A stretch of 64,000 bases of DNA, from assembly GCA_038215705.1 (NCBI GenBank), contig JBBQQQ010000012.1:6523-70522 (forward strand), read 5' to 3'. Source of the stretch: Bacteroidia bacterium (GTDB lineage: Bacteria; Bacteroidota; Bacteroidia; AKYH767-A; OLB10). Below, one piece after another: positions 10,729 through 28,424 of the stretch (position 1 is the stretch's first letter; each line of letters opens with the position of its first letter). The translations under genes and the position numbers were made by a program. A model generated the notes under the pieces. That model was not told the origin of the DNA and did not search any database. It saw nothing but the letters and a program-made list of their open reading frames with translations.

Positions 10729-11178
10729 TCACAAACTCTTTTTCATGCAAACACTGGAAGCAACACTGGCATATTGCCCGTAATTGGGGATTCGATTGTA
10801 ACCGGATTTAATGTAGAGTGCAATAGCTTCAGGTTGCTTTTTGCCGGTTTCCAAAATACACTCTGAAAAACCTGATTCTTTTGCCCAGTCTTCCAGCCGC
10901 ACTAAGATTCCCGATGCTAATCCTTTTCCACGCAATGATTCTTTGACATACATTCTTTTTATTTCCACAATGCCGGTGGAATAAAATTTAAAAGCCCCAC
11001 AACCGGCAGGATGATTATCGGAATAGCAAACAATTACATTTTTAATATCGTCGGACTTGTTATACTGTGCAAAAAATGCGTGATCATCGCCATCACGCAC
11101 CTTCAGTTCCGCATCGAGCAGTTTCACTAATTCCAGGTAATCATTATCTGCTGAATCGGTTCTTTTAAAATTAACCAT
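10729..11178 (-). CDS. GNAT family N-acetyltransferase
   Basis: Motif A RGKGLASGIL and the size and pattern of a single GNAT domain. Confidence 0.75.
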   Translation of the reverse strand: MVNFKRTDSADNDYLELVKLLDAELKVRDGDDHAFFAQYNKSDDIKNVIVCYSDNHPAGCGAFKFYSTGIVEIKRMYVKESLRGKGLASGILVRLEDWAKESGFSECILETGKKQPEAIALYIKSGYNRIPNYGQYASVASSVCMKKSL

Positions 11179-11202
11179 AATAAAAACAGGTTTAATTCGA
11201 CC

Positions 11203-12849
11203 CTACTTTTTCTTGCCAGTCAGCATTTTCAGCATGTTCACTTCCATCTCCGTAAGGTATCTCCATCTTCCTCTTGGCAGATCTTTTTTAGTGAGACCGG
11301 CAAAATAAACACGATCCAGTTTGCGGACTTTATATTCCATTGCTTCAAAAATACGTCGCACCACGCGGTTGCGACCGGAATGCAATTCTACGCCAATTAC
11401 ATTTTTTTCGGTTGGAGATTCATAATGTATTTCATCAACGCTTGCAGGTCCGTCTTCGAGTTCAATACCTTCCGCAGCGCGAACCATGTCTTCCTGCGTA
11501 AGATTGCTGTCGAGTTCTACCTGGTAAATTTTCTTTACGTTACTACTGGGGTGGGTAAGGCGTTTGGTGAGTTCGCCGTCATTAGTCAACAATAAAAGTC
11601 CTGTTGTGTTTCGGTCGAGTCGGCCTACTGGAAAAATACGTTCTTTACCTGCATCGTGTACCAGGTTCATAACAGTTTTACGTTCTTCCGGATCATCGGT
11701 TGTAGTTATATAATCTTTAGGTTTATTCAATAAAACATAAACCATGGTTTCAGTTTTCAGGGTTTGATCGTTGAATTTTACTTCATCACCCGGGTTTACT
11801 TTTGTTCCCAGTTCGGTCACCACTACACCATTAACTGCAATAACTCCTGCAGTAATTAAATCATCGGCTTCCCTGCGGGAACAAATTCCTGCATTGGCAA
11901 TATATTTATTTAATCGAACGGCACCCGGTGCTGTAGTATCACCCTCACCGGCTGCTAATTTTTTCTTGTACGATTCACGTCGCTTAGGTGCTTTATCACC
12001 TGATTTGGTATCAAACCGGCCACGCATTTCTTTTGAGTGATCGCGATCGGAATATTTTTCACGCTTTTTTTCAAAAGGTTTTTTCTTGAACGGGGTGCGT
12101 GAATCTTCGCGCGAAGGGCGTGTTGATTCACCAGAATTTCTTGCCGGTCTTTCAGGGCGTTCATCGCGACCCGATCTTGCTTTGTAAGCGGCATATGATC
12201 CTTCTCTAACCTGTTTAACAGGTCCGCTTTCGCGGGATGACGATTCTTCCGGTTTGCGCGATCGAGAGTCTTCCCTGTCAGTCCTGTCTGACCGTGGTGC
12301 AATATCCGGGCGACCCCTGTATTGTGACCGGGCTGCATCACGACCTGCTCTTCCGGGTCTTGCGCCACGCTCCGGCTTATCACTTCTCTCTGATCGTTCG
12401 TCACGGGGTTTGTAATCGGGTTTCGAATCATCACGTTTTGATCGTTCGGGACGACCTTCGCGCTCTGGCCTGGATGCGTAACCGCCTCGTGAGTCATTTC
12501 GGTCTGCTCTGCCGGGACTTGTGGTTCTGTCGCCAGGCTTTTCATTGCGGTCTGAACGTTCCGGTCCTTTTGTATATCCTGACCGCGAATCGTCACGTTC
12601 GTCACGGTTTTTAAAGTCGCGTTTATCGGGTCGGGGAGCATCACTAGAGGATCCCGGGTAACCTGATTTAGAGCGTTGTGCAGGTTTGCGCTTATTAATT
12701 TCCTGGTCAGGAAAATAATCACCTTTTCGCTTGCGCAGCGGAGTTCCATCAGGCTTTACCCAACCACTTTTCTTCTTAGCATCACCTGATTTACTTCTCG
12801 GGCTGGTGCTCCTGCCCTTGCGTCCCCCTTTATCCTGTTCCCTTGCCAT
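11203..12849 (-). CDS. rluB: pseudouridine synthase RluB-like with a roughly 310-aa low-complexity N-terminal extension
   Basis: S4 domain [22 protein letters not shown] starts near aa 311, and the catalytic motif is GRLDRNTTGLLLLTNDG. The preceding 310 aa are an R/D/E/S/K/P-rich imperfect repeat region. Confidence 0.8.
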   Translation of the reverse strand: MAREQDKGGRKGRSTSPRSKSGDAKKKSGWVKPDGTPLRKRKGDYFPDQEINKRKPAQRSKSGYPGSSSDAPRPDKRDFKNRDERDDSRSGYTKGPERSDRNEKPGDRTTSPGRADRNDSRGGYASRPEREGRPERSKRDDSKPDYKPRDERSERSDKPERGARPGRAGRDAARSQYRGRPDIAPRSDRTDREDSRSRKPEESSSRESGPVKQVREGSYAAYKARSGRDERPERPARNSGESTRPSREDSRTPFKKKPFEKKREKYSDRDHSKEMRGRFDTKSGDKAPKRRESYKKKLAAGEGDTTAPGAVRLNKYIANAGICSRREADDLITAGVIAVNGVVVTELGTKVNPGDEVKFNDQTLKTETMVYVLLNKPKDYITTTDDPEERKTVMNLVHDAGKERIFPVGRLDRNTTGLLLLTNDGELTKRLTHPSSNVKKIYQVELDSNLTQEDMVRAAEGIELEDGPASVDEIHYESPTEKNVIGVELHSGRNRVVRRIFEAMEYKVRKLDRVYFAGLTKKDLPRGRWRYLTEMEVNMLKMLTGKKK

Positions 12850-12868
12850 TGTATTGAATTTGAGGGTG

Positions 12869-12876
12869 CAAAGGTA
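12869..12876 (-). promoter_or_regulatory. -7 box TACCTTTG (followed by CACCC) for rluB
   Basis: The reverse complement of CAAAGGTA lies 20 nt upstream of the rluB ATG. Confidence 0.5.
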
Positions 12877-12993
12877 GTAAATAGCAGTTACTTATTGAAG
12901 AAAGCGATTGGGTTTAAAGTCATCGTGCTAAACCGATGTTAGGCGTTCGTTCTTTTTTTTTTCTTCAGTTGTTGTTCGTTTCATTTTAGGTAG

Positions 12994-13001
12994 TAAATTT
13001 G
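12994..13001 (+). promoter_or_regulatory. -7 box TAAATTTG for the methyltransferase gene
   Basis: Exact TAnnTTTG, 32 nt upstream of the ATG at 13033. Confidence 0.45.
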
Positions 13002-13032
13002 TAACCATTGTATAAGGTTAAACTACTTGGTT

Positions 13033-14271
13033 ATGAATGAATATTTGACACTCACGGAAGTCTCTGAATTGATAGGCAAAAGCAAAGAAACTCTCAGGCG
13101 TTGGGATAGAGAAGGCAAGTTGTCTGCTGTCCGTGAGCCAATGAGTAATTACCGTGTTTATAAACGAGAACAAGTTGAAATACTGTTTGCCGACTTTGTC
13201 AATCAAGATATCGAAGATGTTGTAACCAACTATGTTGAGCCACACATTGACTATTCTGTCTTAGAGTTGTTTGCAGGTGCCGGTGGTTTGGCTGTTGGTA
13301 TGGAAAAAGCAGGTCTAAAATGTGTTGCATTGAATGAAATTGATAAATGGGCTTGTCAAACGTTGCGGAAAAATCGACCAAAATGGAAAGTGTTAGAAGG
13401 CGACATTAAGTCGTTTGATTTTTCTGAATATCATAATAAAGTTGATGTAGTTACTGGCGGTTTTCCTTGTCAAGCATTTAGTTATGCAGGAAAAAAATTA
13501 GGTCTTGCCGATGCAAGAGGAACATTGTTTTATGAATTTGCAAGAGTTGTCAATGAAGTGAACCCACCAATTTGTATTGGCGAAAATGTCCGTGGCTTAC
13601 TAAGTCACGAGAATGGAAAAACGTTACAAGGGATGATTTCAATTTTAGATGAAATTGGTTACAATGTCGTTCCAGTCCAATTGTTGAAAGCCATTAATTA
13701 TAGAGTGCCACAAAAAAGAGAACGTATAATCTTAGTTGGCATTAGAAAAGATATTGACTTTCAATATGAATATCCAAAACCACACAAAAAAATTTATAAC
13801 TTAAAAGATGCATTAAAAAAAGGTGAACTGTTTGATACTAATGTGCCAAAGTCAATTGGTGCAAAGTATCCGCAAAGCAAGAAAGCTGTTTTAGATTTAG
13901 TGCCTCAAAAAGGTTATTGGCGGGACTTACCAATAAATATTCAAAAAGAATTTATGGGAGGTAGTTATTACTTAGGTGGCGGAAAAACTGGAATTGCGAG
14001 GCGAATAGGTTGGGATGAGCCGTGTCTTACACTTACTTGTAGTCCTGCACAAAAACAAACAGAAAGATGTCACCCCGATGAAACTCGTCCGTTTACAGTT
14101 CAAGAATATGCACGAATTCAAACCTTTCCTGATGATTGGAAATTTGAGGGTTCAATGGCACAACAATACAAACAAATCGGGAACGCAGTTCCCGTTAATT
14201 TAGGAACAGAAGTTGGCTATTCTATCATTAAGTTTTTGAATCAATATTATAATTTGTCAAAACCAAGATAG
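13033..14271 (+). CDS. DNA (cytosine-5)-methyltransferase with N-terminal MerR/excisionase-type HTH
   Basis: C5-MTase motifs are present: I FAGAGG, IV GGFPCQAFS, VI ENV, VIII QKRERI, IX-X RPFTVQEYARIQTFPDDW and GNAVPV. The N-terminal roughly 60 aa LTLTEVSELIGKSKETLRRWDREGKL form an HTH. The ORF track starts at TTG 13027, but ATG 13033 is more likely. Confidence 0.9.
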   Translation: MNEYLTLTEVSELIGKSKETLRRWDREGKLSAVREPMSNYRVYKREQVEILFADFVNQDIEDVVTNYVEPHIDYSVLELFAGAGGLAVGMEKAGLKCVALNEIDKWACQTLRKNRPKWKVLEGDIKSFDFSEYHNKVDVVTGGFPCQAFSYAGKKLGLADARGTLFYEFARVVNEVNPPICIGENVRGLLSHENGKTLQGMISILDEIGYNVVPVQLLKAINYRVPQKRERIILVGIRKDIDFQYEYPKPHKKIYNLKDALKKGELFDTNVPKSIGAKYPQSKKAVLDLVPQKGYWRDLPINIQKEFMGGSYYLGGGKTGIARRIGWDEPCLTLTCSPAQKQTERCHPDETRPFTVQEYARIQTFPDDWKFEGSMAQQYKQIGNAVPVNLGTEVGYSIIKFLNQYYNLSKPR

Positions 14272-15011
14272 TAGCTATAATTTTCAAAAGTGATTTGGTC
14301 TATGATGCTTCGCTTAGAATTTTTTGTTTCGAATTTAATTTCTTCCAATGCAGAATTTGCAGCAATTTCTTCACTCTTGTCAATTGATTTCAAATAGTCG
14401 TTGATTGCAATTGGTAATGATTTGTAAAATTGAAACAATGCATCGTCTTGTCCCGAAACCAAAGCGTAAAATCGGTCACCAGAAATTTTATAAACTCTGC
14501 TGTGGCTGTATTCTTTGCCGTTGATGTCGCCGCTCCACAAATCACAAAAACTTCCTTTGGCTAAAATTTGCACCCAATAACATTTTGCTTTTTTATAGTC
14601 GTTTGCATATCGGGCTAGCTTTTGAAACAAGGCTTCGCCTGCACTACTGTTCATAGTGTTGTGCTTGTTTTTGATGTCGGCAAAAAGTGTATCGTCTTTC
14701 GTCTTGATGTCAAAGCCGCTTAAATTTCCTACTTCAAAGCCTTTGATGCCACCAATAATTTGTTCGTGAAATGTCCCGATGGAATTATTAATTGACTTGT
14801 CTATCTGTCGCAAGATTTCAGATTGGATAAGGCTTTCCTCGTCAATATCGTTAAACTTTGCATCAAAGGTCAACTTGATTGTATCCACCTTGTTTGAGTA
14901 AAAGTGCTTTTTTGTGATATTGTTCTTTGCTTTCAAATAGGCTTTGTGAAGATTGCCAATGCACTCTAATAAATGATCGTCCGAGATGAAGTTTACGTAT
15001 TTATTTTTCAT
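14247..15011 (-). CDS. candidate Type II restriction endonuclease partner (PD-(D/E)xK-like)
   Basis: It is convergent with the MTase and overlaps it by 25 nt. A possible catalytic pattern is GFD(101)...D(112)-I-K. It is visibly AT-rich, and I cannot assign the family by eye (Eco47II-like is only a guess). Confidence 0.55.
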   Translation of the reverse strand: MKNKYVNFISDDHLLECIGNLHKAYLKAKNNITKKHFYSNKVDTIKLTFDAKFNDIDEESLIQSEILRQIDKSINNSIGTFHEQIIGGIKGFEVGNLSGFDIKTKDDTLFADIKNKHNTMNSSAGEALFQKLARYANDYKKAKCYWVQILAKGSFCDLWSGDINGKEYSHSRVYKISGDRFYALVSGQDDALFQFYKSLPIAINDYLKSIDKSEEIAANSALEEIKFETKNSKRSIIDQITFENYSYYLGFDKL

Positions 15012-15114
15012 TAAATTCTGTCAAATTTGTCAGCCGCAAATATAGCATTAAAAGTTAATTTGGGTCACTTGCCCGAATGTAGCACTGTCTCCACAGAATG
15101 ATGCCTAACTCCGG

Positions 15115-15483
15115 TTACAGATTCATAAAGGGATAAAAGGCATCCGGAGTATGTTCGATGGTCCAGGTATCTCCGTGAAAAATAACGACAATTAAATCAT
15201 ACCGGACTTCCCAAACAATATTTTTAATCTCTGTATACCTTCCTGCTGCATCGTAAAGCAACCTCAGTTTTTTATTGCTGATCAGGTCATCGGTATCAGT
15301 GTAATGTTCGAGTGCGCGGGTTTTTACTTCTGCAATCACCAATTGATTCGCGTGGAAAGCTACAATATCGAGTTCTGCTTTTTGCCATACCCAGTTGCGG
15401 TCGAGGATGAGGTAGCCTGCTTTTCGTAAAAATTCAGTGGCGATCTCTTCGCCTTTTTCGCCGAGGTCATTGTGTTCTGCCAT
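15115..15483 (-). CDS. yraN: YraN family endonuclease-like protein (UPF0102)
   Basis: GEKGEEIATEFLRKAGYLILDRNW...ELDIVA...VIAEVKTR matches the family signature, and the size is about 120 aa. Confidence 0.8.
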   Translation of the reverse strand: MAEHNDLGEKGEEIATEFLRKAGYLILDRNWVWQKAELDIVAFHANQLVIAEVKTRALEHYTDTDDLISNKKLRLLYDAAGRYTEIKNIVWEVRYDLIVVIFHGDTWTIEHTPDAFYPFMNL

Positions 15484-15610
15484 AAAAAAAAGTATTGAAA
15501 AGTTTAAAAAAATAAATGGTTGTTAATGAAAAATTAATGTGTTGTTGAAAAATTGGGTTGCTATGGGCACGATAAATGTAAAAATAATTTTCTGAAATAA
15601 AAAGTTGGTC

Positions 15611-16507
15611 TCAAAAAGTAATAGAAGTTTTTTCAGCAACAACAAGTTTTATTTTCCTGCCAAAGACAATGGGATTATTCTCATCAAGATGACCTGCGTT
15701 GAAACCAAAACAAACCGGATAATTGTATTCCTTTACCGCATCTAGTATAATTTCCTCGGCTGATTTTCCAAATGGGATGGTATTATCTTTCATGTCATTC
15801 ATCGCCCCTACGATCAATCCTTTCAACGATTTTAATTTACCGGTCCGCTTTAAATTCATCATCATCCGGTCAATATGATAGAGGTATTCATCGAGGTCTT
15901 CAAGAAATAAAATTTTTCCTTTTGTGTGCACATCCGATTCCGTCCCCGCAAGGGCATATAGCAACGATAAATTACCTCCTATCAACTCGGCAGTTGCTTT
16001 TCCCGGGCGGTTGAATAAATGCGCACTTAAATCATAGTGCACTGATTTTCCGGCTAACACCAGTCTCAGATTTTCAAGAATCCTTTCAGGTGTTTTTGGA
16101 AAGTTTATTGCCATAGGCGCATGAAGCGTTTCGGTTTTACAGTGGAGGTTAATGTGAGAATGTAATACCGTTACATCGCTGAACCCGATTAACCATTTTG
16201 GTGATTTTTCAAACCGCTGAAAATCGAGTTTATCGATAATGCGTACCATTCCATATCCTCCGCGTGCAAACAAAATGGCCTTTACTGAAGCATCATCCAG
16301 CATCATTTGCAAATCTGCCCATCGTTGCTGATCGGTTCCGGCAAACTGGCGATCCGATTCAAATAAATACATGCCTTTTACTACTTCAAAACCCCAGGAC
16401 TGGAGTTTGTCAATAGCGGGTTGCATTTCCTCAGGACTGACTTTCCGCGCAGGAGCTACCAGTGCAATTTTATCACCGGGTTGTAATGGAGCTGGAGTAT
16501 ACGTCAT
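15611..16507 (-). CDS. ldcA: LD-carboxypeptidase (peptidase S66)
   Basis: GDKIALVAPA at the N-terminus, nucleophile region GFSDVTVLH and a C-terminal GH region. Confidence 0.8.
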   Translation of the reverse strand: MTYTPAPLQPGDKIALVAPARKVSPEEMQPAIDKLQSWGFEVVKGMYLFESDRQFAGTDQQRWADLQMMLDDASVKAILFARGGYGMVRIIDKLDFQRFEKSPKWLIGFSDVTVLHSHINLHCKTETLHAPMAINFPKTPERILENLRLVLAGKSVHYDLSAHLFNRPGKATAELIGGNLSLLYALAGTESDVHTKGKILFLEDLDEYLYHIDRMMMNLKRTGKLKSLKGLIVGAMNDMKDNTIPFGKSAEEIILDAVKEYNYPVCFGFNAGHLDENNPIVFGRKIKLVVAEKTSITF

Positions 16508-16543
16508 TCGTTATAATGCCCGTAAGGGATATCAAGACAGTTC

Positions 16544-16551
16544 CAAAGGTA
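16544..16551 (-). promoter_or_regulatory. -7 box TACCTTTG for ldcA
   Basis: The reverse complement of CAAAGGTA lies 37 nt upstream of the ATG at 16507. Confidence 0.45.
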
Positions 16552-16629
16552 AATATTTATCCGTATACCCTTACAAAACTCTGATTACAGTTATGTTGGT
16601 TAAACCTCAGGGCAGTGTCACAATTTTTT

Positions 16630-16637
16630 TATCTTTG
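16630..16637 (+). promoter_or_regulatory. -7 box TATCTTTG for metG
   Basis: It lies 44 nt upstream of ATG 16681 and inside the spurious 5' extension of the tracked ORF. Confidence 0.5.
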
Positions 16638-16680
16638 CGTTTTGGTTCAGTTTACCGATAAAAATCACGGAATTCTATTT

Positions 16681-18735
16681 ATGTCCAAACCCTTCCTGGT
16701 CACAGCCGCGCTTCCTTACGCCAATGGTCCTGTTCATATAGGCCACCTTGCGGGATGTTATATTCCCTCCGATGTGTTTGTCCGTTATCAGCGTTTGACA
16801 GGAGCGGATGTTAAATTTATATGCGGATCTGATGAGCATGGTGTGCCTATTACCCTAAAAGCAAAAGCGGAAGGAATTACCCCGCAACAGGTAGTGGATA
16901 AATATCATGCGATGATGAAAAAGTCGTTTGAGGAATTTGGAATTTCATTCGACATATACTCACGCACTTCCAATAAAATTCATCATCAAACGGCTTCCGG
17001 TTTTTTTAAGACATTGTATGAAAAAGGAGCTTTTACTGAGCAGGTAACCCTTCAGTATTATGATGAAGAAGCGGGACAATTCCTTGCCGACCGTTACATT
17101 GAAGGAACCTGTCCGAAATGTGGAAATGAAAAAGCTTATGGCGACCAGTGTGAAAATTGCGGAAGTTCATTAAGTCCTTCTGAACTAATTAACCCGAAGT
17201 CGAAACTCAGTGGCAACGTTCCTGTGCTGAAAGAAACCAAACACTGGTTTTTACCTTTAAATGATTATGCTCCCTGGCTTCGTGAATGGATTCTTGAAGG
17301 ACATAAAAACGATTGGAAACCGAATGTATATGGCCAGTGCAAATCGTGGCTGGATGCCGGTGACGGGTTGCAGCCTCGTGCTATGACGCGTGATCTCGAC
17401 TGGGGAGTACCGGTGCCCATTGAAGGCGCAGCGGGAAAAGTTTTGTATGTGTGGTTTGATGCACCCATCGGTTATATTTCAGCAACACGTGAGTTGTTGC
17501 CCGATAATTGGGAGCATTACTGGAAAAACCCCGATGCCCGGCTGATTCATTTTATTGGAAAAGACAATATTGTTTTTCATTGTATCATTTTCCCTGCTAT
17601 TTTAAAAGCACACGGAGGGTATGTGCTGCCTGAAAATGTTCCTGCCAACGAGTTTTTGAACCTTGAAGGGGATAAAATTTCAACTTCCCGCAACTGGGCC
17701 GTTTGGCTGCATGAGTATCTAACTGAATTTCCCGGTAAGCAGGATGTTCTTCGCTATACACTTATCGCAACCGCTCCTGAAACAAAGGACAATGATTTTA
17801 CCTGGAAAGATTTCCAGGCCCGCAATAATAATGAACTGGTTGCAATCCTTGGGAATTTTATCAATCGTGCAATGGTACTTACCGGAAATTATTATGAAGG
17901 AAAAGTTCCGCAACACGGTACACTGACTGCTGGTGATACAGAGATTATAGAATTTTTAACTACTTCAAAAAAGAATATCAGCGAAAGCATTGAAAAATAT
18001 CGCTTGCGCGAAGCACTTGCAACTTTGATGGATGTTGCCCGTGCGGGAAATAAATATCTTGCCGACAACGAACCCTGGAAACTTATTAAAACCGATGCCG
18101 AACGAACAGCCACAGTTTTATATGTTTCATTAGAAATTTCAGGTTTTCTTTCTATCATCATGGAACCCTTTCTTCCGCACACAGCGATTAATCTTCGCTC
18201 GATGTTGAATATTAAACAACCGGAGTGGTCATCTGCTTTCGCAGGAAAACTGATGACAACCGGACACCAGTTGAACAAAGCAGAATTGTTGTTCGATAAA
18301 ATAGATGATGAAATTATAGCAGTGCAAATTGCAAAATTAGAAGCAACAAAAACTTCGCAAACTTCGCCAACTGTTGTCGTGAATGAAAATACTACGCCAA
18401 CATTTAAAGATGTAACCACTTTTGATGACTTCACAAAAATGGATATTCGCATAGGAACAATTTTAGAAGCTGAACGTGTTCCCAAAACGGATAAACTTTT
18501 AAAATTATTGATTGATACCGGTCTTGACAGACGAACGGTTGTATCTGGTATTGCTGCCGATTTCAAACCAGAAGATATTATTGGGCAACAGGTAACGCTT
18601 CTCGCCAACCTCGAACCACGAAAAATAAGAGGCATTGAATCTAAAGGGATGATATTGATGACGGAGGATGCAAATGGTAAACTGGTATTCGTAGGCCCGG
18701 CAAGCCAGGTAGATAATGGTGGGACAGTCAGGTAG
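16681..18735 (+). CDS. metG: methionine--tRNA ligase
   Basis: HIGH motif (PVHIGHL), zinc knuckles CPKCG/CENCG, a KISTS (KMSKS-type) loop and a C-terminal tRNA-binding (EMAP/Trbp111-like) domain. The start is set at [16 protein letters not shown]. Confidence 0.95.
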
Positions 18736-18746
18736 TTAGCCCCTAA

Positions 18747-18787
18747 AATGAAGGTCTGAAAACCTTAAAATTCATTCATTTTTTTTC
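18747..18787 (+). terminator. probable metG terminator
   Basis: Imperfect hairpin AATGAAGGT...ACCTTAAAATTCATT followed by a T8 run. Confidence 0.45.
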
Positions 18788-18788
18788 T

Positions 18789-18796
18789 TAAATTTG
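18789..18796 (+). promoter_or_regulatory. -7 box TAAATTTG (followed by CACCC) upstream of tRNA-Arg
   Basis: Exact TAnnTTTG, 67 nt upstream of the tRNA 5' end. Confidence 0.4.
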
Positions 18797-18862
18797 CACC
18801 CTCTTAATAGAGGTAGTTATTCTTTTATTTATCATCTATCATTTATAATTTATTATTTCTCT

Positions 18863-18934
18863 GGCCTCGTAGTTCAATGGATAGAATAGAAGTTTCCTAA
18901 ACTTTTGATATGGGTTCGATTCCCGTCGAGGCTA
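18863..18934 (+). tRNA. tRNA-Arg (anticodon CCU)
   Basis: Manual cloverleaf: acceptor GGCCTCG/CGAGGCT, D-arm GTTC-AATGGATA-GAAT, anticodon arm GAAGT-TTCCTAA-ACTTT (U33, CCT, A37) and T-arm ATGGG-TTCGATT-CCCGT. The discriminator is A and no CCA is encoded. Confidence 0.93.
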
Positions 18935-19780
18935 CTAAATACAGAGCGGGAAAGAGAATGAGAAAGAGTACGAATATTTTTACGTTCCCATTCCCATTCC
19001 CATTCTCATTCTCATTCTGAAATCAGGGCGGGATTTTGTATTAAATCCATGCTTTTCAAAAGTTGACCGATCTGATTTATTCGATTCCCGATAGGGCTAC
19101 ACATACAGAGCGGGAAAGAGAATGAGAAAGAGTACGAATATTTTTACGTTCCCATTCTCCTTCTCATTCTCATTCTGAAATCAGGGCGGGATTTAGTATT
19201 AAATCCATGCTTTTCAAAGTTGACCGATCTGATTTGTTCGATTCCCGATAGGGCTACACATACAGAGCGGGAAAGAGAATGAGAAAGAGTACGAATATTT
19301 TTACGTTCCCATTCTCATTCTCATTCTGAATCAAGGCGGGATTATGGATTAAATCCATGCTTTTCAAAAGTTGACCCGATCTGATTTGTTCGATTCCCGA
19401 TAGGGCTACACATACAGAGCGGGAAAGAGAATGAGAAAGAGTACGAATTTTTACGTTCCCATTCTCATTCTCATTTTCATTCTGAATCAGGGCGGGATTT
19501 TGTATTAAATCCATGCTTTTCAAAAGTTGACCCGATCTGATTTGTTCGATTCCCGATAGGGCTACACATACAGAGCGGGAAAGAGAATGAGAAAGAGTAC
19601 GAATATTTTTACGTTCCCATTCTCATTCTCATTTTCATTCTGAATCAGGGCGGGATTTTGTATTAAATCCATGCTTTTGAAAGTTGACCCGATCTGATTT
19701 GTTCGATTCCCGATAGGGCTACACATACAGAGCGGGAAAGAGAATGAGAAAGAGTGCGAATATTTTTACGTTCCCATTCT
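18914..19780. repeat. tandem satellite (5 full units plus 1 truncated, 152-164 bp) that begins within the tRNA-Arg 3' end
   Basis: The conserved block ACAGAGCGGGAAAGAGAATGAG starts at 18941, 19105, 19262, 19414, 19570 and 19727. Each unit ends with TTCGATTCCCGATAGGGCTA, resembling the tRNA end TTCGATTCCCGTCGAGGCTA. Confidence 0.95.
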
Positions 19781-19921
19781 ATACGTGATAACAGCGTAGA
19801 GCTGATGAGTCTGCCAATTATTACAATGGCTAAGGGGAAAATTAATGGATTGGTTGAAATAGCGATTGGAAGTAATCCTCAATTCAGGTAAATAATTTTG
19901 CGAACCGGAAGAGGCGGGTTT

Positions 19922-21874
19922 TTATTTGAGGATCACAATACTCAGATAACTGGATAAAGCGCGCTTAATGGCATCCAGCTCCATCCATTCCCGTTGCAGG
20001 TTGTCGGTATCAAGATTTAACGCAGCAGCTTCCTTAATAGCATCTGCTTTTTCTTTCATGAGCCTGGCAATGTGTTTTATTTTTATGGAGTACACAGCAC
20101 TCATAACCGCATGTTTGAGTTTTTGGATTTCCTCTTTTACTGCAACTCCGCGTTCGCTCCACATCGCCAGCGGATACTTAACAGTGAGCATATCGGCAGC
20201 AATATTTCTGATCGCTGCTTGCTCATGGTTTATCAGGTTATGCGGATTATAAACTTCATTGCTATGGACCATATTTTCAAACTCACTGAAAATTTTTGCA
20301 AACACCGGGTTTTCAAATGTGATGTTATCCTGCGAAATTTCATGTACTATAAATGACTTCACCGATTCTGCTACGGTTCGGGTCTCCCTTTCATTAATTG
20401 CTTCTTCAAAAAATATATCCTGCTCGCCATAGGTTAATAAGAGCCTGATGATATCCGCTTCCTGGTATTCAGCGACATTAAAATACTCATTTATCTTTAA
20501 TTGATTATCATTATATTGGTCTTCTATTAACTCAACATCATCTACTTCAGATGCCTTACGTTTGCTTAAGACATTTTTTGTAATTATTTTGTTTGATTCT
20601 GATATTAATAATTGTTCTTCAACACCTATTAATTCTGAACAAGATTTTTGATATTGTGATCTGCTAAGAGGATCAACAATTTTTGATATTGTAGTTACTA
20701 CATCCCTAATTAATTCAGCTTTTTTTATAGGGTCATTCCCAACTAACTCAATTAACAATTTGGTTTTGAAATGGACGAAATCTTGAACTTGTTTTGCTAT
20801 GAAAGCAGCCACTTCATAACTGTTATGCTTTCGCGAGAAGGTATCCGGATCTTCCCCGTCGGGAAACAGAACAACTCTCACATTCAAACCTTCTTCCAGA
20901 ATCAGATCAATACCGCGAAGCGATGCCTTGATACCAGCCGGATCACCGTCATATAAAATGGTTATGTTTTTTGTATAACGCCCGATTAAACGTATCTGCT
21001 CAACCGTTAGTGAGGTTCCTGATGAGGCAACAACGTTTTCAATTCCCACCTGGTGCAAGGCGATCACATCGGTATATCCTTCAACCAAAAAACATTCATC
21101 CTTGGCAATAACAGACTTCTTCGCAAAGAAAATCCCGTAAAGAATATTACTCTTATGATAAATGTCCGATTCGGGCGAGTTCAGGTACTTTGGGCTCTTG
21201 GGATCGGTCTTTAAAATGCGGGCTCCGAATGCAATTACTTTACCGGTAATGTTATGTATTGGAAACATCACCCTTCCGCGAAAGCGATCAAAAGTTTTGT
21301 TTTCATTCACTATAGTCAACCCCGCTTTTTCAAGATTTTCAATCAGGAATCCCGCTTCCAGGGCAGCATCAGTTAACCCTCTCCAGTTGTCGGGTGAATA
21401 CCCAAGCTGGAATTTTTCGATCATGCCCTCGGTGAATTCCCTTTCATGAAAATAAGATAAACCTATAGCGCGTCCTTCATCTGTTTCATGCAGCTGGCGG
21501 GAATAAAACTTCCTGGCAAATTCAGTAACCACCAGTAAACTTTCCCTCTGCAATTGTTCCAGGTCGTATCCCGGTTCTTTCTCATCTTCTTCAACAGCGA
21601 TATTGTATTTACTTGCCAGGTAGCGAAGCGCTTCAGGATAACTGTACTGTTCGTGCTCCATAACAAAATTTACAGAGTTGCCACCTTTGCCGCATCCAAA
21701 ACATTTATAAATACCTCTGGTGAGGGAAACGTTAAAAGAGGGCGTTTTTTCATTATGAAAAGGACAAAGGCCAATCAGGTTGGTTCCCCGCCGTTTTAAC
21801 GAAACAAAATCACCCACCACCTCTTCAATGCGGGCAGTATCGATGATCACATCAATGGTTTCTTTTTTAATCAC
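19922..21874 (-). CDS. dnaG: DNA primase
   Basis: Zinc ribbon CPFHNEKTPSF...CFGCGKGG, TOPRIM EGYTDV...DGDPAG, and a GTG start. Confidence 0.92.
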   Translation of the reverse strand: MIKKETIDVIIDTARIEEVVGDFVSLKRRGTNLIGLCPFHNEKTPSFNVSLTRGIYKCFGCGKGGNSVNFVMEHEQYSYPEALRYLASKYNIAVEEDEKEPGYDLEQLQRESLLVVTEFARKFYSRQLHETDEGRAIGLSYFHEREFTEGMIEKFQLGYSPDNWRGLTDAALEAGFLIENLEKAGLTIVNENKTFDRFRGRVMFPIHNITGKVIAFGARILKTDPKSPKYLNSPESDIYHKSNILYGIFFAKKSVIAKDECFLVEGYTDVIALHQVGIENVVASSGTSLTVEQIRLIGRYTKNITILYDGDPAGIKASLRGIDLILEEGLNVRVVLFPDGEDPDTFSRKHNSYEVAAFIAKQVQDFVHFKTKLLIELVGNDPIKKAELIRDVVTTISKIVDPLSRSQYQKSCSELIGVEEQLLISESNKIITKNVLSKRKASEVDDVELIEDQYNDNQLKINEYFNVAEYQEADIIRLLLTYGEQDIFFEEAINERETRTVAESVKSFIVHEISQDNITFENPVFAKIFSEFENMVHSNEVYNPHNLINHEQAAIRNIAADMLTVKYPLAMWSERGVAVKEEIQKLKHAVMSAVYSIKIKHIARLMKEKADAIKEAAALNLDTDNLQREWMELDAIKRALSSYLSIVILK

Positions 21875-21897
21875 GTGGTGGAAATTGTAAAGGAGAA

Positions 21898-21905
21898 CAA
21901 ATTTA
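21898..21905 (-). promoter_or_regulatory. -7 box TAAATTTG for dnaG
   Basis: The reverse complement of CAAATTTA lies 24 nt upstream of the GTG start. Confidence 0.4.
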
Positions 21906-21975
21906 TGAAAAGTTTGCGTATTGGCGTAAAGAGTGGGAAATGAGTCGATTGGAAATGCATTGCATGGTCAACTGG

Positions 21976-22980
21976 TTAATTTACAGCCAGCCGCCTGAAG
22001 CGGGTTTTTTTTGATTTCGGTGGGAGAGAACTGCTGATAAAAGCGGCCAGTTTATCGTAATAAATTTTGCTGTTTTCGGTACCGGTTCTTTGCTGATAGG
22101 ATTTGGCATCAATATACAACCGCTTTTTATACCATGTTGAAGCATGATACACTTCGAGCGTTTCATCCATCACTTTTTTATGCATGAAATTAGCCGCTAC
22201 CATCATTTGTGGGATGTTGATTTCTGTAATCATCTCTTTGTAATTATAATCCTTCACAAGGAGCCCTGTTTGATCTTCATAACTGCGTATCAAAGCCGGA
22301 AGAATGGGAATAATGTATGTTCCCCATCGTTCGATAGCTTTATCCTTAAAATAATGCGAAAGACTGGAGGGCGGATTTTGGAGAATAACAACCTTCGCAA
22401 TTGCAGTGTCGGACACCAATTTCATAGCTATGCCCGCACCTGTACCGGAACCCATGAGTGCCACATGCTGAATGAAAGGCATTTTTTGCAGATCGAGCAG
22501 GAGTTGTTTAACGTCGTTGGCAGACACATTGCCGGGATGATAAAAAATTCCCTCGCTATCGCCTTGCCCACGCATGTTGACCACGCACACATTGAATCCG
22601 CGATCGCAGAATTGTTTCATGGCAGGAATGTAATTTATTGCGCCCTCGTTAATATCGGGGATAATGAGCAGCAATGGGGCCTGCATTCGTAAAGTATCAA
22701 TCGCCATCCAACCGCGAAGTTTTACGCTGTCGCTGAGTGTATAACTGATATTCATGTAATGAATGTTTAGTTGTTTTGGGGAATAAATAAAAATGCCCAG
22801 ACTATCTTTGCCTTTTTCCCTCATTTGTTTTTCATGCAGTATTTGCTGCTGGCTGAGGTAAGCGGAATCAATACGTACCGGGTACAATAGTTCATTGAAT
22901 GAAAGTACAGGCGTAATGATCACCATGGCAATAGTTGCCAGGAGTAATACAATAAATGATCTGAAAATGTTTTTAACCAT
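21976..22980 (-). CDS. membrane-anchored alpha/beta-hydrolase-fold protein
   Basis: N-terminal TM segment and a HVALMGSGTGAG nucleophile-elbow-like segment that is not a canonical GxSxG. The overall length and pattern fit the fold. Confidence 0.5.
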   Translation of the reverse strand: MVKNIFRSFIVLLLATIAMVIITPVLSFNELLYPVRIDSAYLSQQQILHEKQMREKGKDSLGIFIYSPKQLNIHYMNISYTLSDSVKLRGWMAIDTLRMQAPLLLIIPDINEGAINYIPAMKQFCDRGFNVCVVNMRGQGDSEGIFYHPGNVSANDVKQLLLDLQKMPFIQHVALMGSGTGAGIAMKLVSDTAIAKVVILQNPPSSLSHYFKDKAIERWGTYIIPILPALIRSYEDQTGLLVKDYNYKEMITEINIPQMMVAANFMHKKVMDETLEVYHASTWYKKRLYIDAKSYQQRTGTENSKIYYDKLAAFISSSLPPKSKKTRFRRLAVN

Positions 22981-23005
22981 TTGCCTGCATGGTTTTTATG
23001 GGAAA

Positions 23006-23986
23006 TTAATTTTCCCTGGCAATAGTAAAATGCACGAGATCAACAAGTGATGATTTATACCTGTTGTCGTTATATTGCTCGAGTAATGCTAGTGCTTTAT
23101 CACGGTAATCGCACATACGTTTTTTAGCATAATTGATACCGTCTTTTGAATTTACGAATTCAAGCACCTCTTTAACTTTTTTCATGTCGGTGCTGTGATT
23201 TTTAATAATATTGATGATGTGCCTTTTTTCTGAACCTGAAGCGACAGAAAGCGAATATATGAGAGGAAGTGTCATTTTGCTCTCTTTGATATCAATACCG
23301 GAAGGCTTACCGGTTTTGTTGTTCAATTCATAATCAAACAAATCATCTTTGATCTGGAAAGCCACTCCTATAAGCTGGCCAAATTCCCGCATGCGTGCAA
23401 TTCCTGAAGTGTCACTTCCGGCGGAAGCCGCACCTACCGAACAACACGAACCAATCAGCGTTGCTGTCTTCTGACGGATAATTTCATAATAAACAGTTTC
23501 ATCAACATCAAGTTTACGCGCTTTTTCAAGCTGCAGCAATTCTCCTTCACTCATTTCACGCACAGCCTCTGAAACAATTTCCAGCAGGGTAAAATCCTTA
23601 TTACCTACTGCAAGCAATAAACCCTTCGAAAGCAGGTAGTCTCCTACAAGTACTGCAATCTTATTTTTCCACAACGCATTTACTGAAAAAAAGCCTCTTC
23701 GTAAATTGGAATCATCCACAACATCATCGTGAACCAGTGTGGCAGTGTGCAGCAATTCAATGAGCGATGCGCCTCTGTAAGTTGCGTCATTAATTCCGCC
23801 ACACATGCCCGCTGAAAGAAAAACGAACATGGGCCTCAGTTGTTTTCCTTTGCGCTTTACGATGTAGTGCATTATTTTATCAAGCAATGAAACACTACTC
23901 CGCATCGATTCCCGGAATTTTATTTCAAACTCCTTCATCTCCACGGAAATGGGTTCCTTGATTTTATCTAACGTGATAGTTTCCAC
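23006..23986 (-). CDS. polyprenyl diphosphate synthase (IspB-like)
   Basis: First Asp-rich motif LVHDDVVDD and second motif FQIKDDLFD. Confidence 0.85.
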   Translation of the reverse strand: METITLDKIKEPISVEMKEFEIKFRESMRSSVSLLDKIMHYIVKRKGKQLRPMFVFLSAGMCGGINDATYRGASLIELLHTATLVHDDVVDDSNLRRGFFSVNALWKNKIAVLVGDYLLSKGLLLAVGNKDFTLLEIVSEAVREMSEGELLQLEKARKLDVDETVYYEIIRQKTATLIGSCCSVGAASAGSDTSGIARMREFGQLIGVAFQIKDDLFDYELNNKTGKPSGIDIKESKMTLPLIYSLSVASGSEKRHIINIIKNHSTDMKKVKEVLEFVNSKDGINYAKKRMCDYRDKALALLEQYNDNRYKSSLVDLVHFTIAREN

Positions 23987-23994
23987 AACGGGTG

Positions 23995-24002
23995 CAAAGG
24001 TA
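23995..24002 (-). promoter_or_regulatory. -7 box TACCTTTG (followed by CACCC) for the polyprenyl synthase gene
   Basis: The reverse complement of CAAAGGTA lies 9 nt upstream of the ATG at 23986. Confidence 0.45.
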
Positions 24003-24047
24003 CTTAAATTGCCGCCACAGGCAGCGAGTCAAACATGAATAATATGA

Positions 24048-25421
24048 ATGGTATTTTGTATTTTTATGGTATTATTGCCCTTGGCTATGAGACAGTATAT
24101 GATTAACCTTCCGCTTATTTGTTTCTTTTTGGCAATCGTGGTTTACGGATGTAAAAAAGATGATGATAACGACTCTCCGTCCAATCTTCCTTTCATCACA
24201 TCCATGCAGCCGCTGTCAGGAGCAAAAGGAACAATTGTAACACTCAAAGGTTCAAATTTCAGCAATGACATCTCGCTTATAAATGTGTATGTTAATGGCA
24301 AATATGCTGATGTGATAGCAGCTTCAGCTTCTGAAATACAGTTCGAGATTCCTGCCGGAGCAGGATCAGGCCTGATTTCGCTTGTGGTAGCGGGTAAAGG
24401 AACAAGCGGACCTCTTTTTAATTTTATTTATACGGTAACGGTTTCGGTTTTTTCAGGCTATTCACTTATTCCCGGCAACATTGATGGTAACCCCACCACT
24501 GCACGGTTCAATGCACCGGCCGGCATTGCGATTGATCAAAACAATAATTTATATGTTGCTGATGAGCTTAATCACACCATTCGCAAAATCACACCCGTTG
24601 GCAACGTGAGCACCTTTGCAGGAAATGGCATTGCAGGACACCAGGATGGTTTACCCGGCATTGCACGATTCAATCAACCGGTGGGAATAACTTTCGACGC
24701 AACAAACGGATTTTTTTATGTTGCCGATAAGGGAAACCATTGTATCCGAAAAATTAATCTTGCCGGAGATGTCTTCACCGTAGCCGGCATTCCCGGTGTG
24801 CCGGGATATGTTGATGCACCTGGCTTTTCGGCACGGTTCCAAAGTCCGGCAGGAGTTGCCGTTGAAGGCGAACTCGCTTCCGTGTATATCACCGACCAGG
24901 GTAATCATTGCATACGAAAACTTGATGATGTGGGTGTGGTAACAACGTTTGCCGGATCTACCATTGCAGGACTACAGGACGGAGTAGGCGGAGCCGCGAA
25001 ATTTTTGACACCTGAAGCTATCACCTGGGATACAACAGGATATTTGTATGTTACTGATGTAGCAAATCATAATATCCGGCGCATTACAAAAACTTCAAGG
25101 CTCGTGTCCACCGCAGCAGGTTCCGGTGCAGATGGGTATCAGGACGGATCCCCGGCTCAGTCAATGTTCAGTCAGCCTCACGGACTCATGGCAGAAAATA
25201 ATACTGTTATAGTTTGTGATACATACAACAATCGTATCCGCCAGATAATTTACGGTTCAAGTGTCACAACCCTTTCGGGGGATGGCAGCGCTGCTTTTTC
25301 AGACGGCATAGGTTTACTTGCTAAATTCAATAAGCCCGGAGGTATCGTAAAAGATAAAAATGGAAATTATTTTATAACAGATACAGGGAATAATGCTGTT
25401 AGAAGGATGATTGTTGATTAA
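24048..25421 (+). CDS. IPT/TIG plus NHL-repeat beta-propeller lipoprotein
   Basis: Lipobox-like AIVVYGCKKDDD, an IPT-like ITSMQPLSGAKGTIVTLKGSNF, and six or more repeats of the type FN.P.G.A.D..GN.YV.D..NH.IRKI. The true start is probably an internal Met (about 24087). Confidence 0.75.
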   Translation: MVFCIFMVLLPLAMRQYMINLPLICFFLAIVVYGCKKDDDNDSPSNLPFITSMQPLSGAKGTIVTLKGSNFSNDISLINVYVNGKYADVIAASASEIQFEIPAGAGSGLISLVVAGKGTSGPLFNFIYTVTVSVFSGYSLIPGNIDGNPTTARFNAPAGIAIDQNNNLYVADELNHTIRKITPVGNVSTFAGNGIAGHQDGLPGIARFNQPVGITFDATNGFFYVADKGNHCIRKINLAGDVFTVAGIPGVPGYVDAPGFSARFQSPAGVAVEGELASVYITDQGNHCIRKLDDVGVVTTFAGSTIAGLQDGVGGAAKFLTPEAITWDTTGYLYVTDVANHNIRRITKTSRLVSTAAGSGADGYQDGSPAQSMFSQPHGLMAENNTVIVCDTYNNRIRQIIYGSSVTTLSGDGSAAFSDGIGLLAKFNKPGGIVKDKNGNYFITDTGNNAVRRMIVD

Positions 25422-25497
25422 AAAAGTCAGGGAAAAAGTCATTGAAAAAGTCAGGAAAAAGGTCATTGGGTCATTAAAAAAATGTCATTGAATGATG
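25421..25497. repeat. 12-nt periodic AAAAAGTCAKKG array
   Basis: AAAAAGTCAGGG, AAAAAGTCATTG, AAAAAGTCAGGA, AAAAGGTCATTG, then GGTCATT...TGTCATTG. It starts at the stop codon of the NHL gene. Confidence 0.9.
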
Positions 25498-25526
25498 TTG
25501 GTTTTTTGCGATTCAAATTAGTCGTA

Positions 25527-25547
25527 GAGACGCATTGAATGCGTCTC
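25527..25547. repeat. palindromic GAGACGCATT-G-AATGCGTCTC element
   Basis: 10-nt perfect arms sharing the GACGCA..TGCGTC core with the palindrome at 6854..6887. Confidence 0.8.
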
Positions 25548-25577
25548 CGCCGCGACGGGGAAAAAGTCAAATAAAAA

Positions 25578-25984
25578 GTCAGCAAAGGGGTCAGGAAAAA
25601 TTTGCCCTGAAGTGAAGTGATTAGGAAGAAAGAATATGATCTTACTTCGAAAAATTTAAGGGCTCTATTAAATTCAATATTTGAAAAATGAAACTTCTAC
25701 TTCAGGGGTCAGGAATTGAAATTACAGAAAAATGTACTCCTCTCCTTTGGAGAGGTCGGGTGAGGCAAAAAAGGTCAGGCAAAAAGTCAGCAAAGGGGTC
25801 AGGAAAAATTTGCCCTGAAGTGTAGTAATTGGGAAGAAAGAATATGATCTTACTTCGAAAAATTTAAGGGCTCTATTAAATTCAATATTTGAAAAATGAA
25901 ACTTCTACTTCAGGGGTCAGGAATTGAAATTACAGAAAAATGTACCCCTCTCCTTTGGAGAGGTCGGGTGAGGCAAAAAAAGTC
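25578..25984. repeat. two tandem copies of a 199-bp unit (offset 208 bp)
   Basis: 25578..25776 aligns with 25786..25984 with about five substitutions. Each copy holds a long-range stem CCCTGAAGTGAAGT/ACTTCTACTTCAGGG and a CCTCTCC-TTT-GGAGAGG hairpin. Confidence 0.9.
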
Positions 25985-28178: not shown

Positions 28179-28223
28179 TGAATGATATTAAAATTTGTTT
28201 ATAATAATATTAGGACATTAGAA

Positions 28224-28424
28224 ATTGGACATTGGACATTGGACATTGGACATTGGTCATTCACCTGTCACCGTCACCCTTCTCTCCGAACCGGGCAGGC
28301 TTGTCACTCGCCACTCGTTACTCGTCACTCGTCACTGCTCACCTGTCACCCGTCTCTCCGAACCGGGCAGGCTTGTCACTCGCCACTCGTTACTCGTCAC
28401 TGCTCACCTGTCACTCGTCACGTC
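28224..28424. repeat. heptamer micro-repeat region in the dxr-rseP spacer
   Basis: (ATTGGAC)x4 at 28224..28251, then ATTGGTC, ATTCACC, TGTCACC. Two direct units follow (28281..28352 and 28353..28417), each being TCTCTCCGAACCGGGCAGGCTT plus (GTCACTC-like)n, and they differ by exactly one heptad. Confidence 0.92.

Follow-up and report, generated by a model that had tools for sequence, protein, structure and literature searches.

[quoted passage not shown] We lean, with moderate confidence, towards regarding this array as a minisatellite that was born locally and is linked to the tRNA, that has been resized by recombination or slippage, and that is passively transcribed as a trailer, the tRNA-end copies being decayed relics. 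The DNA analysed was a single stretch of 64 kb (hereafter the window), and all positions are counted from its first letter. It had previously been described by a model from the sequence alone (the initial annotation).

Structure of the array behind tRNA-Arg(CCU)

Only one tRNA gene was found in the 64-kb window, tRNA-Arg(CCU) at 18863-18935 on the + strand (ARAGORN; Rfam, 64.6 bits). Tandem Repeats Finder (TRF) reported an array at 18914-19780 with a period of 157, 5.5 copies and 93% matches. Its start lies inside the T loop of the tRNA. The proposal of the initial annotation that the array is anchored on this gene was confirmed. The 28-mer ACAGAGCGGGAAAGAGAATGAGAAAGAG was present in exact form at all six positions that had been given for it (18941, 19105, 19262, 19414, 19570 and 19727), and a 27-mer resembling the tRNA end was found at 19073, 19230, 19382, 19538 and 19695; the number expected by chance was 0 in both cases. 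When the phase is set so that a unit starts right after the discriminator base, the region consists of the tRNA gene, five full units and a sixth unit that ends after ~59 nt, as follows.

tRNA-Arg(CCU): 18863..18935, + strand; genuine gene in which CCA is not encoded, its last ~22 nt forming the "unit zero" of the array (ARAGORN, Rfam).
Unit 1: 18936..19099, + strand; 164 nt, with a long hairpin at 18942-19019, a small hairpin at 19030-19048 and a tRNA-end copy with one mismatch at 19073-19099.
Unit 2: 19100..19256, + strand; 157 nt, with a long hairpin at 19106-19177, a small hairpin at 19188-19206 and a tRNA-end copy at 19230-19256.
Unit 3: 19257..19408, + strand; 152 nt, with the shortest hexamer run, a long hairpin at 19263-19328, a small hairpin at 19338-19356 and a tRNA-end copy at 19382-19408.
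Unit 4: 19409..19564, + strand; 156 nt, with a 2-nt deletion at the hairpin apex, a long hairpin at 19415-19484, a small hairpin at 19494-19512 and a tRNA-end copy at 19538-19564.
Unit 5: 19565..19721, + strand; 157 nt, with a long hairpin at 19571-19642, a small hairpin at 19652-19670 and a tRNA-end copy at 19695-19721.
Sixth unit: 19722..19780, + strand; truncated, first ~59 nt, with a break point identical to that in the related genome MDV bin73.

Pairwise identity among the units is 88-97.5%. The values form a gradient, from 97.5% between units 4 and 5 to 88% between units 1 and 3, as would be expected for local duplication. Variation in unit length had been attributed to the copy number of a hexamer; this holds for most of it, and indels of 1-2 nt contribute the rest. 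The statement that unique spacers are absent proved correct, the entire 157-nt period being repeated, and a CRISPR array was rejected on the same grounds. A conserved small open reading frame (ORF) was also rejected, because the frame is broken in unit 4 and is not conserved in a more distant relative (L092, see below).

The tRNA-end copies were then compared with the tRNA itself. From G53 to the discriminator base A73, they agree with the tRNA at 17 of 21 positions, in the order of 12 contiguous matches, four consecutive mismatches (TCGA vs ATAG) and the common sequence GGCTA. The exact run shared with the tRNA, previously described as an 11-mer, is in fact the 12-mer GTTCGATTCCCG and is found in units 2-5. 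The copy in unit 1 differs by one mismatch (TTTATTCG). Just upstream of the 21 positions, the 5' strand of the T stem has suffered a 2-nt deletion in the copies. The spacing to the next block, which had been considered equal, is 5 nt (CACAT) after each copy and 6 nt (CTAAAT) after the real tRNA.

Homology between the unit and the tRNA is confined to the last ~30 nt of the latter. The 5' two-thirds of the tRNA gave no significant match to the unit (223 of 500 shuffled sequences scored as well), and neither ARAGORN nor Rfam, even at E<=10, recognized any tRNA-like fold in the units besides the single genuine tRNA. Degenerate whole tRNAs in each unit, that is, a tandem array of tRNAs or pseudogenes, were rejected, as there is neither a cloverleaf nor full-length similarity. 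In the predicted folds of all units, the tRNA-end copy is unpaired and has no partner for its acceptor strand or T stem. Because these partners are missing, the copy does not mimic the structure of a tRNA arm. These results agree with the initial view that the copies are relics rather than spare tRNA ends, and provide no structural support for the idea that they are processed as tRNA-like substrates.

On the + strand, the unit is predicted to fold into a long imperfect hairpin of ~29 bp, in which CAGAG, GGGAA and GAGAAUGAGAA form stems with the hexamer run, followed by a small GGAUUU/AAAUCC hairpin and the unpaired tRNA-end copy. The small hairpin had been recognized in the initial annotation. 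The 11-nt complementary arms described there also exist, but represent merely the core of the longer imperfect hairpin. The folds are only moderately better than those of shuffled sequences, with z values of -2.7 (+ strand) and -3.7 (- strand). Among eight units from two genomes, double (compensatory) changes were found in 0 of 37 pairs, in a data set whose variation is too low to test the structure, and the only changes in the 3' arm of the hairpin were three substitutions from G-C to G-U on the + strand. Across all ten copies, the first 48 nt show hardly any variation. Rfam searches at the gathering score and at E<=10 detected only the tRNA and chance matches to microRNA-like hairpins.

Concerning transcription, two elements flanking the array were identified.

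Candidate Bacteroidota -7 promoter box, TAAATTTG: 18789..18796, + strand; pattern match with a putative promoter function.
Weak stem followed by a T run, AACCGGAAGAGGCGGGTTTTTATTT: 19903..19927, + strand; -7.6 kcal/mol, z -1.1, a weak putative terminator.

The box TAAATTTG is placed 66 nt upstream of the tRNA, and the motif TAAATTTGCA is also present upstream of tRNA-Arg(CCU) in four other genomes (L002, L086, L092 and L093). Between 18797 and 19892, no Bacteroidota-type -7 box (TAnnTTTG) was found on either strand. A terminator-like site was absent between the tRNA and the array, as had been noted before, and also within the array. Because the array thus has no promoter or terminator of its own, a + strand transcript would most simply result from read-through from the tRNA promoter, and the array is most likely transcribed as a trailer of the tRNA. 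Co-transcription of the array with tRNA-Arg(CCU) is plausible from this arrangement. The stem AACCGGAAGAGGCGGGTTTTTATTT, situated just beyond the stop codon of dnaG on the opposite strand, may be a first, weak candidate for the site at which the read-through transcript stops. Antisense read-through of the array from dnaG may also occur.

The array is located between metG (methionyl-tRNA synthetase) and dnaG, both of which are core genes. The 49 larger ORFs of the 64-kb window are of housekeeping type or unannotated. We found no integrase, transposase, reverse transcriptase or GIY-YIG nuclease among them, consistent with the earlier statement that the window is devoid of an integrase.

Occurrence of the unit and the tRNA-Arg locus in related genomes

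Exact-pattern scans of genome collections detected the unit outside the window in only one related metagenome-assembled genome (MAG), Bacteroidota bacterium MDV bin73; the only other hit was one unrelated, real tRNA-Glu. Scans of metagenomes gave no further copy, only a trailer of the L092 type (see below) and chance matches, and nhmmer with a profile of the unit gave no match in 83 loci. In bin73, the syntenic metG-tRNA-Arg-dnaG locus harbours one full unit and a second unit truncated at the identical position. The copy number at this locus is thus 5.3 in the window and 1.3 in bin73, both values being derived from metagenome assemblies, and the length polymorphism that had been considered in the initial annotation does exist.

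A second locus was identified on a separate contig of bin73, where two units directly follow the discriminator base of tRNA-Met(CAU). The phase of the unit is exact behind both tRNAs (...GCTA/CACATACAGAG, with the slash marking the junction). This second location in a related genome could not have been deduced in the initial annotation. Of the two units behind tRNA-Met, the first differs very little from unit 1 of the window, and the second terminates in TGATTTGTTCGATTCCCGTCGAGG, which combines a left side of the unit type with the genuine acceptor strand of tRNA-Arg, TTCGATTCCCGTCGAGG. This hybrid end ties the copies to this tRNA-Arg as their source and documents the arrival of the unit at a second tRNA gene; also at the tRNA-Met locus, it is tRNA-Arg and not tRNA-Met that the tRNA-end copy resembles. 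The right junction at tRNA-Met is real, since it was reproduced in identical form in two further independent assemblies, three in all.

These two loci were the only ones found to carry the unit in bin73. We searched for an empty tRNA-Met site and for the tRNA-Met locus of the window genome, and found neither among related contigs, which end before the tRNA. The neighbour of tRNA-Met is a lineage-specific protein of 486 aa. A Fic gene at this locus, when used as a query, recovered only the contigs confirming the right junction. Synteny between this gene and the Fic genes beside tRNA-Arg in relatives was rejected, as the Fic families differ (31% identity). Neither array displayed similarity to the unit in its right flank.

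Searches for associated mobile elements were negative. Neither a recombinase nor a transposase was present among the five ORFs around the tRNA-Met array of bin73, and no GIY-YIG gene adjoins the bin73 arrays. Scans of viral contigs with the tRNA-end copy, the unit, the hybrid junction and the genuine tRNA end returned nothing but one real tRNA-Glu, and blastn searches of phage and plasmid collections were negative. A prophage or integrative element carrying the core next to an integrase, which the initial annotation had envisaged, was accordingly not found in these collections. Its reading of the array as an iterated att scar is not supported, taking into account the lack of an integrase in 64 kb, the lack of phage, plasmid or viral matches, the native trailer at the start of the unit described below, and the core genes on either side.

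We then examined the tRNA-Arg locus in genomes whose methionyl-tRNA synthetase is 80-83% identical to that of the window. In L092 and L099, tRNA-Arg is followed by a single-copy trailer, and its alignment to the initial ~45 nt of the unit is significant, with a score of 39 that was reached by 0 of 300 shuffled sequences but may be inflated by the hexamer-rich sequence. The upstream spacers of the window and L092 gave no significant alignment. Because the single-copy trailer aligns, the start of the unit is a native trailer of tRNA-Arg and not imported DNA. The invariance of the 48 nt and the conservation in L092, next to a spacer that is not conserved, hint at a possible constraint on the trailer RNA. 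Other relatives differ at this locus, as listed below.

L086: identical tRNA-Arg, then an unrelated array of 77 nt x 3.5, based on a strong terminator hairpin.
L087, L093 and L110: the terminator-type trailer of L086 in a single copy.
L090: no tRNA at this locus; a 97-nt x 4 array after metG.

The arrays in L086 and L090 show that amplification of trailers is recurrent in this clade. Both the clade and the window also abound in intergenic micro- and minisatellites. Other duplications were seen at the same tRNA-Arg locus. L092 contains a 5' pseudo-tRNA with a small inverted-repeat insertion, L093 an 18-nt 5' duplication, and L110 a broken full-length tRNA-Arg(CCU) and a remnant of a GIY-YIG nuclease followed by the intact gene. 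A relationship between the second half of the unit and the terminator-type trailer of L086, L087 and L093 was rejected despite a suggestive MAFFT alignment, as 42-58 of 300 shuffled sequences scored as well.

Comparison with known systems

tRNA-linked repeats (TLRs) have been known in Escherichia coli since 1978. They were not mentioned in the initial annotation, although they represent the closest precedent. In E. coli, 22 copies are distributed over ten loci, with 1-5 copies per locus, and the last 18-19 bp of the repeat are identical to those of the tRNA or rRNA located upstream (PMC8144298). This repeated end has been proposed to act as a processing signal (PMC8144298). Only three TLRs, all of them linked to rRNA, have a known function. 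The TLRs RrA/B/F undergo processing and are bound by Hfq and CsrA, and 3'ETS-leuZ is an example of a trailer fragment with a function (PMC8144298).

The E. coli tyrT-tyrV locus, whose repeat of 178 bp x 3.14 (rtT RNA) typifies the class, was used as a control. [quoted passage not shown] The Rfam family RtT (RF00391) gave four matches on tyrT, with 133-138 bits. The same model gave no match in 18700-20000 of the window even at E<=10, and membership in the RtT family was therefore rejected. By architecture, the closest known system is the E. coli TLR class, with RtT being unrelated in sequence.

The architectural likeness extends to several features. In both cases, head-to-tail repeats lie directly 3' of a tRNA on the same strand, the array begins in the tRNA end, and each unit closes with a copy of the tRNA end followed by a short common trailer. 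The first block of the array starts 5-6 nt past the discriminator base, which also applies to tRNA-Arg and tRNA-Met of bin73. There are 1-5 units per locus at more than one tRNA locus (5.3 in the window, 1.3 and 2 in bin73), and an autonomous promoter is absent in both systems. On the other hand, the copy in the window is imperfect (12+5 of 21) and lacks CCA, whereas the E. coli repeats have 18-19 identical bases; by the strict measure of 18-19 identical bp, the array falls outside the class. The copy behind tRNA-Met of bin73 matches tRNA-Arg and not the adjacent tRNA. Further differences are the ~59 nt of trailer that the block in the window includes in the half-unit at its far end, the ~29-bp hairpin formed from inverted hexamer runs, and the host itself, an uncultured Bacteroidota lineage. 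The unit has no homology to the E. coli repeats in sequence or structure.

The attL/attR sites of integrases resemble the array in that direct repeats of the segment from the T loop to the 3' end lie downstream of an intact tRNA. Here, however, there is no integrase or island, the core has no match in mobile elements, the intervening DNA is 130 nt and is partly native trailer, and the copies occur five times over, always with the same spacer. A third system is found in phage T6, where the GIY-YIG nuclease SegB, encoded beside tRNA genes, drives tandem amplification (PMC13096335). In common with our locus are the tandem amplification of a tRNA-bounded segment and the GIY-YIG remnant in the relative L110. 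The phage unit is 718 bp and holds a tRNA and segB, in contrast to the 157-bp non-coding unit of the window, which has no nuclease gene in or near the array.

Origin and possible role of the array

In the scenario that we favour, the founding event would be a duplication of the last ~29 nt of tRNA-Arg(CCU) together with ~130 nt of the trailer that follows this gene. Changes in the number of units, with the 5.3 and 1.3 copies as outcomes of expansion and contraction, would subsequently have come about by replication slippage or unequal homologous recombination between units, and concerted evolution would keep the units alike. The genuine tRNA end would stay outside this homogenization, because it is under selection and has only 12 contiguous bases in common with the copies. 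The copied ends would have decayed, through the 2-nt deletion in the 5' strand of the T stem and four changes in the 3' strand of the acceptor, into relics that serve neither as working tRNA ends nor as att sites. We infer that the tRNA precursor carries the array as a long trailer, which is cut off at the genuine 3' end of the tRNA, with each transcribed unit expected to fold into the ~29-bp imperfect hairpin and the small hairpin. Such a minisatellite presumably lacks a function. The occurrence of the same unit directly behind a different tRNA, tRNA-Met, in bin73 argues against local duplication alone. Moreover, the copy number reported by TRF (n+0.5, not a whole number) would need either a later terminal deletion or dispersed founding direct repeats separated by unique sequence.

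A serious, although less probable, alternative is that the array functions as RNA, in the manner of a TLR or a 3'ETS. Transcribed together with the tRNA, it would be processed to hairpin RNAs of ~157 nt, either through cleavage of the 29-bp stems by RNase III or through an endonuclease that acts near the conserved junction ...GGGCUA/CACAU, and the products would serve as sponges, protein decoys or small RNAs at a dose that tracks transcription of the tRNA. The absence of an internal promoter or terminator fits such a role, as do folds that surpass shuffled sequences on both strands and changes in the 3' arm of the hairpin that convert G-C to G-U on the + strand. The near-invariance of 48 nt in ten copies points in the same direction, along with the ~45 nt that align with the L092 trailer next to a spacer that does not, and RrA/B/F and 3'ETS-leuZ provide precedents (PMC8144298). 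However, the alignment with L092 is subject to the inflation mentioned above, compensatory changes amount to 0 of 37 pairs in units of low variation, and the tRNA-end copy is unable to form a tRNA-like substrate. In addition, bin73 has just 1.3 copies at tRNA-Arg, the trailers of other relatives are quite different, and most TLRs of E. coli have no known function (PMC8144298). We consider it unlikely that the unit belongs, or once belonged, to small non-autonomous elements or att-type recombination products directed at tRNA 3' ends. In this case an enzyme encoded elsewhere, either a recombinase or a nuclease, would insert the unit directly after the discriminator base and, as the unit carries a copy of the tRNA end, each insertion would recreate the target, so that arrays build up. 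This would explain the exact phase behind two different tRNAs in bin73, and the hybrid end at tRNA-Met fits a recombination between real and copied T loops. The tRNA-Arg(CCU) locus is a hot spot of duplication in the clade (L110, L092, L093), and the GIY-YIG system of phage T6 is a precedent for tandem amplification (PMC13096335). Nevertheless, genes for an integrase, transposase, reverse transcriptase or GIY-YIG enzyme are lacking both in the window and beside the bin73 arrays, phages, plasmids and viral contigs gave no match, the unit occupies only two loci in the single MAG that carries it, and its start corresponds to native trailer. A core crossover or target duplication would require extra changes to account for the right junction at tRNA-Met, for which no empty comparator was found among related contigs.

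A reading in which a self-propagating repeat linked to tRNA ends is placed in exact phase behind further tRNA genes, first tRNA-Arg and then tRNA-Met, by recombination at T-loop or 3'-end sequences and its transcripts are possibly released as hairpin RNAs seems quite improbable to us. That the array or its copy number is an artefact of metagenome assembly is highly improbable. Related short-read assemblies do break at or near the tRNA-Met array, and the window compared with bin73 is a mosaic of blocks that are 70% and ~100% identical. All units can nevertheless be distinguished at 88-97.5% pairwise identity, no exact repeat in the array is longer than 102 nt, a length that an assembly with k>=127 can resolve, and independent assemblies yielded the unit and its junctions again.

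The array is a variant that extends a known kind of element to a further phylum. Its main value lies in comparisons that bear on the architecture of TLRs. The same layout in unrelated sequence of a distant phylum suggests that iteration of a tRNA end with its trailer arises repeatedly, and beyond the enterobacteria. Intermediates have been kept, namely a relative with a single-copy trailer, a sister genome with 1.3 copies and a second tRNA locus with a hybrid end, and these could help to separate passive duplication from active spread. If the repeat did propagate itself, it would represent, within Bacteroidota, a convergent equivalent of the TLRs of E. coli, and would offer a tractable route to understanding how and why families of this kind spread through tRNA and rRNA operons. 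If the trailer RNAs are stable, the array would provide an RNA tunable by copy number, with an output coupled to transcription of the tRNA. Otherwise it would be an ordinary minisatellite, of use as a strain marker and calling for caution in assembly and tRNA annotation.

The unit and its tRNA-like end

Each full unit of the array behind tRNA-Arg(CCU) is closed by a decayed copy of the tRNA 3' end, referred to here as the mimic. A 20-mer within the mimic, TTCGATTCCCGATAGGGCTA, also forms the 3' end of real tRNA-Glu(CTC) genes, at two loci.

Genuine tRNA-Glu(CTC) genes ending in TTCGATTCCCGATAGGGCTA
L003, 3341-3413: Paceibacterota MAG
L085, 1780-1852: high-GC viral contig

The match itself is most likely a coincidence. 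Nevertheless, the occurrence of this 20-mer at genuine tRNA-Glu(CTC) 3' ends shows that the mimic is plausible as a tRNA 3' strand, one that would belong to an acceptor stem beginning GGCCCTA.

We also noticed a mini-ORF of 14-20 codons, MRKSTNIFTFPF(S/P F)n, which is found in each unit and spans the (CATTCY)n hexamer run.

Mini-ORF copies in the window
18958-19020
19122-19178
19279-19329
19587-19643
19744-19788

The indels of the hexamer run preserve the frame. Because the copy in unit 4 (19431) is frameshifted and no conservation of the peptide was seen in the single-copy trailer of the relative L092, the mini-ORF is probably not coding.

The tRNA-Arg(CCU) locus in relatives

The 3' ends of tRNA-Arg(CCU) were compared among the window, L002 and the relatives L086, L087, L092, L093 and L110. 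In L086, L093 and L110 the gene itself supplies CCA behind the discriminator base, and it does not do so in the window, L087, L092 or the related MAG bin73. As the triplet is encoded in some members and not in others, the route of 3' maturation of this tRNA probably differs across the clade.

Duplications and insertions were found at the gene in several relatives. In L110 (GCA_964587075.1), positions 3136-3545 harbour, in this order, a broken full-length tRNA-Arg(CCU) copy, a GIY-YIG nuclease remnant (Pfam E-value 2e-13) whose N-terminus is interrupted by a stop, and the intact tRNA-Arg(CCU). A perfect palindrome of 20 nt is inserted in the T loop of the broken copy, and the arrangement looks like a homing-type duplication of the gene. 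L092 (4738-4865), and likewise L099, carries a 5' pseudo-tRNA-Arg fragment upstream of the intact gene. The D loop of the L092 fragment is split by ~95 nt bordered by 10-nt inverted repeats, TCCGCCCGGC and GCCGGGCGGA, and this insert resembles a miniature inverted-repeat element. In L093 (6095-6116), 18 nt of the tRNA-Arg 5' end (GGCCCTGTAGTTCAATGG) are directly duplicated, abutting the gene on its upstream side.

Mosaic identity between the window and bin73

When positions 11000-25500 of the window were compared with bin73 (L084), stretches of 98-100% identity, such as 16787-17586 and 19569-23167, were found to take turns with others in which identity is 52-88%, among them 23168-25367 and the 3' half of metG. 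The DnaG proteins are identical, and one of the switches in identity falls at the tRNA and the array. This pattern suggests either frequent recombination among diverged lineages or chimeric population assemblies. Relative to bin73, the window also has a 2.2-kb insertion at 12997-15100, in which a type II restriction-modification pair is encoded.

Genes within the 2.2-kb insertion
13027-14271, + strand: C5 cytosine methylase whose N-terminus carries a MerR-type HTH
14247-15011, - strand: Eco47II-family endonuclease

Other tandem arrays

Tandem arrays unrelated to that of the window are present at the same place in two relatives.

Arrays in relatives
L086, 6276-6545: 77 nt x 3.5, with a strong terminator hairpin as its base, directly behind an identical tRNA-Arg
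L090, 6069-6458: 97 nt x 4, behind metG, the tRNA being absent there

Further intergenic arrays occur in the window itself, at 25417-25984 and 28213-28421. They consist of a 208 nt x 2 array containing AAAAAGTCAGG motifs and of runs of the heptamers GGACATT (x 7) and GTCACTC (x ~17). Heptamer and octamer runs are also numerous in the relatives.
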